A DNA stretch of 64,000 nt from Candidatus Omnitrophota bacterium (GTDB taxonomy: Bacteria; Omnitrophota; Gorgyraeia; JAFGHF01), in assembly GCA_043805735.1 (NCBI GenBank), contig JAZDHS010000020.1, forward strand, positions 9,750-73,749, in the 5' to 3' direction. Positions 15,001 through 18,000 of the stretch are shown piece by piece. Position numbers: made by a program. Position 1 is the first letter of the stretch, and each line of letters begins with the position of its first letter.

Positions 15001-18000
15001 GCGTAGATTTTATTTTACATCAGGCGGCGCTGCGTTCAGTGCCGAAGTCCGTGGAGGACCCGCTTTCCTACAATGAGGTCAATGTCGGCGGAACCTTAAA
15101 CGTGCTTTTGGCCGCCAAAGAGGCCGCTGTGAAAAGGGTGGTCTTTGCCTCTTCCAGTTCGGTATATGGAGATACGGTCGTGTTTCCGGAAAAGGAAATA
15201 CATCTGGCCGCGCCAATTTCGCCTTATGCCGCCTCAAAGATTGCCGGCGAGCATTATTGCCATGTCTTTGCCAGCGTCTACGGTTTAGAGACGGTGTCGC
15301 TACGTTATTTCAACGTTTTTGGCCCGCGCCAAAGCCTGGAGAGCCACTATGCGGTGGTCGTGCCGCGTTTCATCGTTAATATGCTCCACGATAAACCCGC
15401 GCCGATTCACGGCGACGGCAAACAATCGCGCGATTTTACCCACATTGATAACGTGGTCCAGGCCAATATCCTGGCGGCAACGGTTCCGGCGATTTCCGGC
15501 CGGGTGTTCAACATTGCCTGCGGTAAGGATTACAGCGTATTGGAGCTGGTCGAATATATTAATAAAATTTTGGGTAAAAAGATTAAACCCGTATTTAGTC
15601 CACCGCGTGCCGGTGATGTCGCGCGGACCGTAGCCGATATTTCCCAGGCCAAAAAGCTGCTGAAATTGACCATTCAGGTCGATTTTGAGCAGGGTTTAAG
15701 AAAAACGGCGGCCTGGTTTAAGGAGCACATTAATGAGTACGCCTAAAAAGCGCAGGGTGTTAATTACCGGCGGGGCCGGCTTTACCCCGCCCCTCCAAGA
15801 ATTGGGGCTTAGGACATTTATAAATATGTTAGCTTATATTATAATGGTGATGTAATGAAGAAGAGAATACTGGTTACAGGAGGGGCGGGGTTTATCGGTT
15901 CGCATTTGTGCCAGCGGCTCTTGGGGGAAGGTTATCGCGTTATCTGCATGGATAACCTTATTACCGGAAAGAAAGAAAATATTGCCCATCTGCTGGGCAA
16001 CCGCAATTTTCTGTTCATTCAGCACGATGTCTCCCGTTATATCGATGTCGAGGACCCGCTGGACTACATTTTACATTTTGCTTCTCCGGCCAGCCCGATT
16101 GATTATCAGGTTTATCCTATCCAGACGCTCAAAGTCGGATCACTGGGTACTCACAATTCTTTGGGCCTGGCCAAGGTCAAGGGCGCCAAATTCTTACTGG
16201 CTTCGACATCGGAAGTCTATGGCGATCCCCTGGTCAATCCCCAGAAGGAAGACTATTGGGGCCATGTCAACTGTATCGGCCCGCGCGGTGTTTATGACGA
16301 GGCCAAGCGCTTTGCCGAGGCGTTGACCCTGGCCTATCACCGTACGCATCAGATTGATACGAAGATTGCCCGTATTTTTAATACCTACGGCGAACGGATG
16401 CGCAAGGAAGACGGCCGGGCGATTCCCAACATGATTTCCCAGGCGCTGGGTAACCAGCCTTTGACCGTATACGGTAAAGGTACCCAGACGCGTAGCTTCT
16501 GCTATATTGATGATCTAGTTGAAGGTATCTATAAACTGATGCTTTCCGGCGTCAATTCTCCGGTTAACCTAGGCAATTCCGCGGAAAAAAACATCCTCGA
16601 GCTTGCCAAGTTGATTGTTAAGCTGAGTGAAAGCAGAAGTAAAATCGTGCACAAGCCCCTGCCGATCGACGACCCTAAAGTGCGCTGCCCAGATATTGCT
16701 AAAGCTAAAAAAGAGCTTGGTTGGGCGCCGCGAGTTAATTTAGAAGATGGCTTGAAAAAAACTATCCAGTGGTTCAAAAGTTCCCGCTAAAGTAATGAAT
16801 ATCCTGGGAATATCCGCGTTTTACCATGATAGCGCCGCCTGCCTGGTGCAGGACGGTAAAATTGTCGCCGCCGCCCAGGAAGAGCGCTTTACCCGCAAAA
16901 AGCACGATTACTCTTTCCCTAAACAGGCCATTGCCTATTGCTTAAGTGCCTCAGGTCTAAGTGATAAAGATATTGGCCTGGTTGCTTTTTACGAAAAACC
17001 ATTTATTAAATTTGACCGCCTTCTCCATACCTACCTCACCTACGCCCCCCTGGGTATCCAATCTTTCCTGAAAGCGATGCCGCTGTGGCTTAAGCAGAAG
17101 TTTTGGATTAAGGATTTAATCCGCGCGGAGCTTAATTACTCCGGAATAATTCTTTTCCCCGAACATCACCTCTCCCACGCGGCCTCGGCCTTTTTTCCTT
17201 CCCCGTTTCAAAATGCGGCCATCCTGACCATCGACGGGGCCGGGGAATGGACCACCGCCAGTTTTGGCATCGGTGAGGGTAATAATATCCGGATACTCGA
17301 AGAGCTGCGTTTTCCGCATTCCCTGGGCCTTCTGTATTCGGCGTTTACTTACTATACCGGTTTTAAGGTTAATTCCGGAGAATATAAGCTGATGGGTTTG
17401 GCCCCCTACGGAGAACCCCGGTATAAAGAGACAATCCTTAAAGAACTGCTTGACCTTAAAGAAGACGGATCTTTTCGCCTGAATTTACGCTATTTTGGCT
17501 ATTGCGTGGGTCTGGCGATGACCAACCGGCGTTTTGAGCGGCTTTTTGGCGGCGCAGCGCGCCCGCCGGAATCGCCCTTGACGCAACGGCATATGGATCT
17601 GGCCCGTTCGATACAAGAGGTAACTGAAGAGGTAATGCTGCGGATGGTGCGCCATGTACACAATAATACTCACCAGGACAATCTTTGCCTGGCCGGAGGC
17701 GTGGCCTTAAATTGTGTGGGCAACGGCCGGATTCTCCGCGAGGGGCCATTTAAACAGATTTGGATTCAACCGGCGGCCAGCGATGCCGGCGGGGCTTTGG
17801 GTGCGGCACTTTGTGCCTGGTATCTGCATCTTAATAATCCGCGCCTCACCGACGGTGAAACCGACGCGCAACAAGGATCATTTCTTGGCCCCGAATATTC
17901 GCACGACTACATTCAGGATTTTTTGAGAAAAAATAATGTTGCTTATCGCGAACTTTCCGAAGCCGAGCTTCCCGAAACCGTCGCCGATTTAATTAACGCT

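Follow-up and report, generated by a model that had tools for sequence, protein, structure and literature searches.

In classical operons and in RNA phages, translational coupling relies on overlapping stop and start codons (ATGA, TAATG, GTGA) and on a ribosome that unfolds a helix over the downstream start. IS elements with outward-facing or hybrid promoters activate neighbouring genes. Correia elements duplicate TA, and target duplications are expected to be absent from REPINs. Chunjie, a bacterial MITE, is reported, according to the title of a 2008 paper by Chen et al. that PMC10969869 and PMC3184786 cite, to lie in an operon without breaking it. Neisseria REP2 and Borrelia IR-A/IR-B are repeated modules, placed directly in front of genes, that contain a promoter, a ribosome-binding site and a start codon (PMC3184786), a position and content resembling those of the elements described here. 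Unlike these elements, REP2 has no terminal inverted repeats, and for REP2 and IR-A/IR-B PMC3184786 describes neither target duplications nor a displaced-start relic with a coupled leader ORF. Rickettsia palindromic elements (RPEs) insert in frame, are read through and add a peptide (PMC10969869), whereas the element described here splits the gene.

The window analysed was a 64,000-nucleotide stretch of a Candidatus Omnitrophota contig. Within it, a UXS-like SDR gene was preceded by a short ORF that the initial annotation had described as a GTG-initiated leader. The ORF was found as described: GTG at 15757-15759, 32 sense codons, the TAA of the upstream gene at 15744-15746, and a stop (TAA 15853-15855) whose last A is shared with ATG 15855 in a TAATG overlap. 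The next in-frame codon after this stop is TGA 15856-15858, which forms ATGA and provides a back-up for the stop/start overlap. The start of the ORF was reassigned. Its frame runs open upstream to ATG 15733, giving 40 codons that begin with MSTPKKRRVLITGGAGF, and this ATG overlaps the final 14 nt of the upstream TviC-like gene. GTG 15757 lacks a properly spaced Shine-Dalgarno sequence; ATG 15733, with AAGGAG at 7 nt, is a far superior initiation site and is the more likely start. This AAGGAG sits within the 3' end of the TviC-like gene.

The upstream ORF is probably the gene's own original beginning, severed by a 106-bp inverted-repeat element that appears to be mobile. The element inserted at a TTTA site where the GGAGF codons meet those for IGS. 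Its in-silico excision restored a 23-residue N-terminus like those of element-free orthologues (MSRKKRVLITGGAGFLGSHLC in locus L094 and a 21-residue counterpart in L102). Counted by eye, ACCGGCGGGGCCGGCTTTA agreed with the native L102 sequence at 17 of 19 positions; the element-borne copy agreed with it at 13 of 19. The element was absent from the orthologous genes in L094, L101 and L102. The UXS-like gene formerly began at ATG 15733 with AAGGAG as its Shine-Dalgarno sequence, overlapping the end of the TviC-like gene. The earlier reading of the ORF as a fossil SDR N-terminus holds in that the relic is an SDR N-terminus; it comes not from another SDR but from the first 17 codons of the same gene, cut off by the insertion with its TIRs and TSD. 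Positions of all features are collected in Table 1.

Table 1. Coordinates of the elements, flanking duplications, reading frames and candidate signals in the window (TIR, terminal inverted repeat; TSD, target-site duplication).
Feature	Position	Strand	Remarks
TSD TGAA	12152-12155 and 12280-12283		flanks element 12156..12279
Type I element, 124 nt	12156..12279	+	TIR CCCCGCCCTTCC, imperfect extended TIR 27 nt; at rmlA stop/rmlB start ATGAA overlap
Copy 1 remnant ORF	12279..12338	+	GTG formed by last G of element and TSD; uncoupled
TSD TTTA	12315-12318 and 12427-12430		flanks element 12319..12426
Type II element, 108 nt	12319..12426	+	inserted after rmlB GGAGF; supplies ATG 12391 and 12 residues
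Canonical 42-codon leader ORF	14674..14802	+	MSPALPNSRIAKGKEVWIQKNMLEIKAKVEIIVGNARKGRAG and stop; displaced ATG through whole type I element
TSD TGAG	14675-14678 and 14800-14803		flanks element 14679..14799
Type I element, 121 nt	14679..14799	+	at TviC-like gene start codon; last G and TG form GTG 14799
AAGGAG, Shine-Dalgarno of ancestral start	15720..15725	+	7-nt spacer to ATG 15733; read from sequence
Leader/remnant ORF, 40 codons	15733..15855	+	GTG 15757 version is its inner part; stop TAA 15853-15855 overlaps ATG 15855
Displaced ancestral N-terminal segment of UXS-like gene	15733..15784	+	17 codons MSTPKKRRVLITGGAGF plus A
Left TSD TTTA	15781..15784
Type II MITE-like element, 106 nt	15785..15890	+	TIRs, TSD, empty sites
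Left TIR CCCCGCCCCTCC	15785-15796		12 nt
Sigma-70-like promoter match (TTTATA, 17 nt, TATAAT)	15817..15845	+	inside element; consensus match only
Shine-Dalgarno-like GGTGATG	15846..15852	+	2 nt before new ATG; putative function
UXS-like SDR gene, 311 aa	15855..16790	+	codons 1-12 element-borne, codon 13 (F) from right TSD, remainder original
Right TIR GGAGGGGCGGGG	15879-15890		12 nt
Right TSD TTTA	15891..15894

The antisense segment noted in the initial annotation, ACCCCGCCCCTCC (15784-15796), was confirmed as a perfect 13-nt complement of GGAGGGGCGGGGT (15879-15891; pair I15). This segment and its partner in the coding sequence are the two TIRs of the element, so what had been called a leader:CDS helix is simply the pairing of these repeats. 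The right TIR also encodes protein. GGAGGGGCGGGG followed by the duplicated TTT reads in frame as G-G-A-G-F, and the preceding 24 nt supply ATG-KKRILVT, so that the UXS-like gene has been rebuilt with a new 13-codon N-terminus. The resulting protein is 100% identical to P0001 (UDP-glucuronic acid decarboxylase family protein at NCBI, Candidatus Omnitrophota). It has Epimerase/GDP_Man_Dehyd domains, an N-terminal GxxGxxG and close homologues named UXS; its enzyme specificity is putative.

Four copies of the element were identified in the window, each with perfect TIRs and matching 4-nt flanks (TGAA, TTTA, TGAG and TTTA). That an ORF and an inverted repeat, both short, should coincide by chance in an AT-rich spacer draws some support from the frequency of short ORFs, of which 101 of at least 25 aa occur in 10 kb. 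We regard this explanation as negligible and already refuted: the TIR 12-mer, with at most 1 mismatch, had 8 occurrences in the window where 0.45 were expected, none of 100 shuffles reached 8, TSDs flanked all four copies, and excision was precise when compared with orthologues. A further TIR-like match at 591-605 was judged to be due to chance because it lies inside a coding sequence, which we take to be DnaJ-like.

Empty sites were found for the other three copies as well: in L094 for the elements at 12156 (GGATGAAAAAT) and 12319 (GGTTTTATCGGCTCT), and in L102 for the element at 14679 (AAATGAGCTCA). In L094 the rmlA/rmlB ATGA overlap is intact and GGAGF runs directly into IGS in both rmlB and UXS, and the UXS starts of L102 and L101 are element-free. 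Excision in silico gave colinear alignments and orthologous N-termini. The leader attributed to copy 1 was present, running from GTG 12279 to TGA 12336-12338 with 19 residues, and was uncoupled as claimed; it carries 13 residues of the old rmlB N-terminus and ends inside the next element. At 14679 the leader ORF stops at a TGA that overlaps GTG 14799 (GTGA). No homology was detected between type I and type II interiors beyond the TIRs.

The two type II copies, 15785-15890 and 12319-12426, were 83% identical over 87 nt (pairs D1/D3), and one may have arisen from the other by gene conversion. Both are flanked by TTTA instead of the usual TGAA/TTCA duplication, which counts against the explanation we favour. 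Exchange between SDR paralogues with similar GGAGF 5' ends, by unequal recombination or gene conversion, could in principle have moved a cassette from rmlB to UXS or in the reverse direction. The 83% identity includes the new N-terminal codons, the TTTA flanks are shared, and one odd GCGGAGGTTCA recurs in all metagenomic SDR relics although they lie in two different genes, a pattern suggestive of copying between paralogues. We nevertheless consider this origin unlikely. It leaves unexplained the perfect TIRs, some 50 TSD-flanked family copies at unrelated genes, and the presence at hypF of the same N-terminus-carrying subfamily. The relics upstream of GGAGF are also gene-specific and orthologous to the native N-termini of relatives. 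Recombination could account only for the spread of one type II copy to a second gene, not for the origin of the structure. Insertion of a transposon-like element, with the upstream ORF as its by-product and not a purpose-built leader, is the account we hold to be probable.

A genome scan returned 93 loci, with about 50 further copies beyond the window, mostly in Omnitrophota genomes. Single Omnitrophota MAGs or genomes could contain many copies, with about 20 on separate contigs of MAG CSMAG_1317 and about 12 on chromosome CP070837.1. Copies were 100-125 nt long, within the range of MITEs, and held only short leader ORFs and no transposase gene. All had perfect TIRs of 12-13 nt, extending in type I to an imperfect 27 nt. 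Left and right flanks co-varied across the family (TGAA commonest, TGAG in 3, also CTGA, TTGA, TTCA, TTTA and TCCA). IS200/IS605-type insertion, 3' of a tetranucleotide and without duplication, was ruled out because both flanks co-vary, and a REP/REPIN (RAYT-mobilised) identity was rejected on the clear 4-nt duplications. Also set aside were high-GC matches in the scan (Streptomyces, Amycolatopsis, Micromonospora and Kineococcus) and longer palindromes from Saprospiraceae, Armatimonadota and Thermomicrobiales, none of which has the TSD and start-codon signature.

From their TIRs, TSDs, empty sites and copy number, the elements appear to be mobile. An autonomous IS or transposase partner, sought as a long TIR pair with equal flanks in about 0.8 Mb of loci, was not found; only neighbouring MITEs were recovered. 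IS1380-type elements, with CC ends and a 4-5 bp duplication, are presumably a lead for the cognate IS. Searches of the literature for Omnitrophota MITEs, for MITEs with translational coupling and for MITEs at start codons returned nothing relevant, and the 106-nt element apparently belongs to an undescribed Omnitrophota MITE family.

Nearly all copies beyond the window lay on native start codons, with [A/G]TGAA or TGAG as the target and a 4-nt duplication. At most 140-240 of the 821 TGAR sites outside ORFs were candidate start codons. The right TIR supplies a purine-rich, putative ribosome-binding site, and its G becomes the first base of a new GTG. This GTG, formed by the element end and the TSD, opened a long ORF in about 48 of the 51 copies; the ORFs were housekeeping genes, with Pfam domains starting at residue 4-10. 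In one case a pair of elements stood in tandem at a regenerated GTGAA. Members of the MRMKILITGGAG subfamily interrupt rmlB-like genes (L039, L096, L099), and one occupies the ATGAA of hypF (L072), where it creates a mini-ORF of 12 codons within a stop/start relay. More SDR insertions with upstream relic N-termini were present in L095, L097 and L098.

In 27 of 51 copies no stop codon within the element interrupts the leader ORF from the displaced start, where shuffles predict 3.1; the remaining two forward frames were open in 7 and 1. Among the 25 cluster representatives it was open in 10 (1.7 expected), and element length was 1 mod 3 in 15 (p = 0.006). Frames on the reverse strand were also frequently open, owing to the purine-rich sense strand; composition-matched shuffles failed to reproduce the openness of the sense frame. 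In 24 of the 51 copies the leader ORF ended precisely at GTGA on the new start. The overlaps at 15853-15857 (TAATG) and 14799-14802 (GTGA) are both of the stop/start type. Taken alone, coupling at the 15785 copy is weakly non-random (P ~0.135 given phase, ~0.045 including phase). Uncoupled insertions comprise the rmlB sister copy and three of six other SDR insertions (L095, L097 and L098, in two of three other groups). As a family property, coupling is supported by these data and is predicted from sequence.

RNA folding placed the TIR helix in both the minimum-energy and centroid structures of the copies folded, and for the 15785 copy with z = -3.3. In this copy the helix is predicted to pair codons 9-13, leaving the ribosome-binding site and AUG unpaired, so that helix melting is not obviously required for initiation. 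The proposal that a ribosome translating the upstream ORF melts the helix and reinitiates agrees with the family-wide pattern of GTGA overlaps.

A dedicated attenuation-like leader, in which the upstream ORF and helix evolved to tune UXS synthesis to translation of that ORF, would fit the TAATG overlap, the predicted 13-bp helix and the analogous layout of copy 1. We rate it very unlikely. The helix arms are the TIRs of a TSD-flanked inserted element, the Shine-Dalgarno sequence and AUG are free of the helix, copy 1 is uncoupled, and the same leader architecture already occurs on unrelated genes. In a scan of 11800-17000 no terminator-like site coincided with the helix or closely followed it, and Rfam 15 gave one sub-threshold chance match and no real one over the same interval. 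No alternative hairpin pair or run of regulatory codons was seen on inspection; with its single TIR helix, the 15785 copy does not form the mutually exclusive hairpins of a trp/erm attenuator. Nor is the leader conserved with the gene that it was supposed to regulate. The expected conservation of the frame in relatives proved strictly negative: the ORF is absent from the UXS orthologues of the closest relatives, L094, L102 and L101, because they lack the insertion. No evidence of conditional regulation was found, and the claim of attenuation-like control was not upheld.

Alternatively, the elements might be kept for an RNA or transcriptional role, as mobile promoters or as hairpins for mRNA processing or stability, with the upstream ORF irrelevant. 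The match at 15817-15845 scored 10/12, the best in 11800-17000, and was the sole notable site in promoter and terminator scans whose totals were not above shuffles. The TIR hairpins are predicted to be stable, Correia elements with functional promoters have been described and MITEs can form very stable RNA folds (PMC10969869, PMC3184786). The two type II copies do not share the promoter match, which was unflagged in copy 1, and such a role predicts neither frame-specific preservation of the leader ORF nor 1 mod 3 lengths. We judge it quite unlikely as an explanation.

Under the insertion account, ribosomes from the old Shine-Dalgarno sequence and ATG, or from the upstream gene, would read through the 40-codon remnant, opening up the left TIR. 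They would terminate at TAA 15853-15855, with TGA 15856-15858 as back-up, and reinitiate at ATG 15855 aided by GGTGATG. Reinitiation of this kind would keep UXS translationally linked to the operon despite the insertion, and the promoter-like site within the element may allow independent transcription. We read the arrangement as damage limitation, that is, translational transparency selected in or after insertion. The odd upstream ORF would then become a clear case of a gene that survives having its 5' end rewritten by a mobile element.

A wider reading, to which we give an even chance as a whole, is that this Omnitrophota MITE family evolved to be translationally transparent. Its members would home to start codons ([A/G]TGAR), and the terminal repeat would serve as ribosome-binding site and start codon. 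The TIR hairpin would hide this combined site until translation of the preserved leader ORF, begun at the native start that the insertion displaced, opened it, and the ribosome would be passed on at the overlapping GTGA. In one subfamily, GGAGGGGCGGGG would provide the Rossmann GGAG motif together with a portable Met-Lys-Ile-Leu-x-Thr N-terminus; such elements could thereby enter genes for SDR sugar-nucleotide enzymes within the first part of the coding sequence and rebuild the enzymes. Insertions of this subfamily would swap both the N-termini and the expression signals of genes.

The start-codon location, the TIR as ribosome-binding site and start, and the preserved leader ORF suggest selection for insertions that do no harm in small Omnitrophota genomes, where operons are tightly packed and overlapping. 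If this is true, the element is a natural portable cassette for translation initiation and coupling, and shows a MITE contributing coding sequence to a protein, here a Rossmann-fold N-terminus. The consequence for annotation is that gene prediction at element sites will call GTG starts, false short ORFs and interrupted 5' ends. The family also bears on the comparison of polysaccharide loci among uncultured bacteria.

Compared with known systems, the elements resemble bacterial MITEs (Correia/NEMIS of Neisseria, ERIC, Nezha and Chunjie; PMC10969869, PMC3184786) in their length of about 100-125 nt, non-coding nature and A+T-rich interior. They share with these MITEs the TIRs, the TSDs, the many dispersed copies and the presence or absence between relatives, as well as hairpins on transcription (predicted here) and possible promoter-like sequences. 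They differ from Chunjie, which has 9-bp repeats (PMC3184786), in their 4-nt duplication (TGAA or TGAG). They differ from other MITEs in lying on the start codon itself, with a TIR that doubles as ribosome-binding site and first base of the GTG, and in the leader ORF preserved through the element to end on the new start. Like RPEs (PMC10969869), they are palindromic mobile elements tolerated in housekeeping coding sequences because the gene product stays functional. Unlike RPEs, they leave the old N-terminus as a separate short ORF and give the gene a replacement start and N-terminus, with the GGAG encoded by the TIR. As with promoter-bearing IS elements, a mobile element putatively lends expression signals to an adjacent gene; here it has no transposase gene and gives translation signals, and in type II also coding sequence. 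Classical translational coupling is matched in the overlapping stop and start, in an upstream ORF with its own strong Shine-Dalgarno sequence and, for type I, in a predicted helix through which part of the upstream ORF pairs with the downstream Shine-Dalgarno sequence and start. Unlike the classical cases, the arrangement in Omnitrophota, whose function is putative, was delivered by a mobile element and did not evolve in place.

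Genes and elements of the window are listed in the table. The UXS-like protein has an NCBI match at 100% identity, which comes from a Candidatus Omnitrophota MAG. The initial annotation had described a 32-codon upstream ORF (uORF) opening at GTG 15757 and ending at TAA 15853-15855, the last A of which is the first base of ATG 15855 of the 311-aa SDR gene, with an antisense segment complementary to that gene and a 19-codon analogue at copy 1, the type II element at rmlB. All of these were found, but the start was not retained: the same frame extends without a stop upstream to ATG 15733 (40 codons), which lies 7 nt downstream of AAGGAG, overlaps the final 14 nt of the upstream gene and is a better start than the GTG.

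Features of the window, with gene order from Pfam and NCBIfam matches; elements are given as inverted pairs with the 4-nt flank found on both sides
Feature	Coordinates	Remarks
UDP-glucose dehydrogenase		first in order
Sugar isomerase		after UDP-glucose dehydrogenase
rmlA	11414-12154
Leader ORF from displaced rmlB ATG	12151-12213	20 codons
Type I element	12156/12279	TGAA
Copy 1 ORF	12279-12338	19 codons
Type II element, copy 1	12319/12426	TTTA
rmlB	12391-13353
TviB-like nucleotide-sugar dehydrogenase	13367-14677
Type I element	14679/14799	TGAG
TviC-like epimerase	14799-15746
Helix, left arm	15784-15796	ACCCCGCCCCTCC, perfect complement of right arm
Type II element, copy 2	15785/15890	TTTA
Sigma-70-like site	15817-15845	TTTATA-17-TATAAT
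UXS-like SDR	15855-16790
Helix, right arm	15879-15891	GGAGGGGCGGGGT, within the SDR gene
Carbamoyltransferase		after UXS-like SDR

The 12-mer CCCCGCCCCTCC (one mismatch or fewer) occurred 8 times in the 64 kb against 0.45 expected, always in inverted pairs 82-100 nt apart. Each element was excised in silico together with one flank copy. Excision restored the rmlA/rmlB ATGA overlap with the native rmlB N-terminus, the ATGA overlap of the dehydrogenase and TviC-like genes, and a UXS gene beginning at ATG 15733. The displaced rmlB ATG 12151 opens a leader ORF (MNPALPKQALRNKQKYSRKF, then stop) that ends within the type I element, breaking the through-frame; given this and the uncoupled copy 1 ORF, rmlB (ATG 12391, weak SD) has no obvious coupling path. 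The two TTTA-flanked type II copies (12319-15890) bracket a 3.5-kb segment carrying rmlB, the dehydrogenase and the TviC-like gene. The outer ends resemble a composite-transposon-style unit, which may be coincidence.

Relatives have empty sites. The syntenic locus L094 (GCA_016939375.1; UXS 82% identical) has an uninterrupted rmlA/rmlB ATGA junction and unbroken GGAGF-region coding in both rmlB and UXS. Its UXS N-terminus, MSRKKRVLITGGAGF, is clearly orthologous to the "fossil" segment of the window. The UXS starts of L102 (78% identical), which reads ATGAGTAAGATGAAAAAGGTTCTTATCACCGGCGGAGCTGGCTTTATCGGCTCGCAT, and L101 are also element-free. Over ACCGGCGGNGCNGGCTTTA, the native L102 sequence was matched by the relic at 17/19 positions and by the element-borne copy at 13/19 (counted by eye). 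The relic is therefore the UXS-like gene's own N-terminus, displaced by insertion. In other words, a MITE-like element inserted into the 5' end of the UXS gene, splitting it and rebuilding it.

L094 carries a different TIR family, CCCCGTTAGA...TCTAACGGGG, at 4889-4964 and 5909-6001 (76 and 93 nt, TSD TGAG), on the ATGAG starts of the TviC-like gene and UXS. One copy occupies the same TviC-like start codon as the window element at 14679-14799, and the leader ORF of the 76-nt copy is likewise open to GTGA (read by hand). Different TIR families appear to insert repeatedly at the same start codons. Two L094 genes are absent from the window: an RmlD-like SDR gene between rmlB and the dehydrogenase (L094:2706-3599; window 13353-13367), and a 401-aa gene, lacking a Pfam match, between UXS and the carbamoyltransferase (L094:6993-8198; window 16790-16795).

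A TIR-pair scan of 185,579 species genomes gave 93 loci. Copies with equal 4-nt flanks came mostly from Omnitrophota MAGs and were numerous within single genomes. Most flanks were TGAA, which reads TTCA when the orientation is reversed; the exceptions (TGAG, CTGA, TTGA and TCCA) co-varied. In approximately 48 of 51 flank-oriented copies, the last G of the element and the TG of the duplication form a GTG opening a long ORF. Sampled ORFs (n = 8) matched Pfam families expected for genes that we take to be gpsA, coaD, kdsB, uvrC, a POR subunit gene, ilvB, nth and, for a radical-SAM protein, queE. The first domain began at residue 4-10 in seven of the eight (residue 36 in the Nth-like protein), and at or beside the first profile position in six of these sampled ORFs. 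Because GTG-opened ORFs carry domains from near the first residue, the elements lie exactly on native start codons, with target (A/G)TGA(A/G), and the right TIR (AAAGGAAGGGCGGGG, then TG) would supply a purine-rich ribosome-binding site and start. Only 140-240 of 821 TGAR sites outside ORFs in reconstructed pre-insertion loci were candidate starts; start-codon bias therefore exceeds site availability, by targeting or selection.

The termini CCCCG...CGGGG also occur in other TIR families. At L055, upstream of a presumably queE-like gene, tandem elements (5331-5437 and 5442-5547) carry TIR variants CCCCGCCCTTCC and CCCCGCTCTTCC; the first had regenerated a GTGAA, into which the second went, and the 37-codon leader ORF of the second ends at GTGA. 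GC-rich relatives with the CCCCGCCCCTCC TIR (L001, L005, L006, L007, L015, L018, L020, L028 and L059; Planctomycetia and groundwater Omnitrophota MAGs) have only a 3-nt flank repeat (TCA/TGA). The flank of L006, the sole reconstructed GC-rich copy, is also start-codon-like (ATGA/.../TGAAAG). Scan loci from Saprospiraceae and Brevifollis (L003, L013, L042, L043, L081, L084), Thermomicrobiales (L010, L046, L065) and Armatimonadota (L047, L056, L071) were rejected: the 12-mer lies within much longer palindromes, for example CCCCACCCCCGCCCCTCCCCAAGGGGGAGGGG..., whose flanks are inverted and not direct, and these are probably unrelated REP-like repeats.

The displaced ATG keeps its own SD and opens an ORF whose first residues, MNPALP, are TIR-encoded. 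This leader was open through the whole element in 27/51 copies, against 3.1 in composition-matched shuffles; the remaining two forward frames were open in 7 and 1 of 51. With one representative per sequence cluster, it was open in 10/25 (1.7 expected). Element length was 1 mod 3 in 15/25 clusters (p = 0.006), the phase in which the right duplication's TGA is in frame, and in 24/51 copies the leader ended precisely on the new start, at GTGA. The 14679-14799 element is a textbook case, its 42-codon leader having its GTGA end at 14799. In predicted folds of type I copies, leader codons 2-6 are paired with the new SD and GTG in the TIR helix. Leader translation would open this helix and terminate on the new start, so that expression would plausibly still be driven from the native initiation site.

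In type II elements the variant TIR GGAGGGGCGGGG, followed by TTC or TTT, reads G-G-A-G-F. TTCA, the reverse complement of the usual target TGAA, is found in GGN-TTC-ATC (GF/I). These elements also carry an ATG and KK(R/K)ILVT or (R)MKILIT just within the right TIR. Besides the two window copies, SDR insertions with upstream relic N-termini (TSD TTCA) were found in rmlB-like (L039, L096, L097, L099) and epimerase-like (L095, L098) genes. The MRMKILITGGAG subfamily also occurs at the ATGAA of hypF (L072), where the leader stops on the ATG of a mini-ORF of 12 codons, which in turn overlaps the hypF GTG with its TGA; the N-terminal cassette therefore travels with the element. Overlap between the relic-ORF stop and the new ATG is seen at window copy 2 (TAATG) and at L039, L096 and L099 (ATGA), and not at window copy 1, L095, L097 or L098.

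Relic N-termini at all TTCA insertions (L039:7780-7801; L095-L099, 90 nt upstream of each element) read GG(A/T)GCGG(A/T)GGTTCA, one base longer than the GGAGF coding sequence, in two different SDR genes. With the extra base the relic ORF enters the leader frame that is canonical for the element (..VHPAPP..); paralogue gene conversion or selection on the frame could account for this. GGAGGGGCGGGG-repeat elements also lie at start codons at L048:657-756 and L070:4390-4501, with leader peptides ending in KILVIEVKGGAG and VIVIEGGAG. These ends are reminiscent of a beta-strand and GGAG N-terminus, and the type II cassette may be related to these elements or derive from them.

Attenuation-like control of UXS had been proposed, in which a ribosome translating the uORF melts the helix and reinitiates at the coupled ATG. 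The helix was recovered in minimum-energy and centroid folds of 15725-15905 (z = -3.3). Coupling with helix melting agrees with the design of the family and may be at work at copy 2. The predicted helix there covers codons 9-13 and leaves the SD-like GGTGATG and AUG unmasked. A terminator scan gave no terminator-like site at or just after the helix, inspection showed no alternative hairpin pair, and the leader is absent from orthologues. On these grounds we read the uORF as a consequence of insertion and not an attenuator, possibly retained because coupling to the upstream gene is thereby preserved. Of shuffles of the copy 2 interior, 13.5% kept an open frame as far as the start (approximately 4.5% with phase counted), so single-locus evidence for selected coupling is modest. 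The sigma-70-like site, the best of the region by consensus match only, was not conserved in copy 1. Overall, the initial observation is confirmed and its interpretation in part supported.

The elements match MITEs in size, in their TIRs and TSDs, in copy number and in having empty sites in relatives. A search for long-range TIR pairs in approximately 0.8 Mb of compared loci found no cognate IS with the same TIRs. A literature search of incomplete coverage found no description of MITEs on start codons with the TIR as RBS and start, of such MITEs with a leader ORF that is preserved and coupled, or of a MITE-borne replacement N-terminus, for which a prior report elsewhere is possible. The closest known systems are Correia, ERIC and Chunjie-type MITEs, RPEs, which lie in-frame inside genes, and Neisseria REP2, which carries a promoter, RBS and ATG but no TIR (PMC10969869, PMC3184786).
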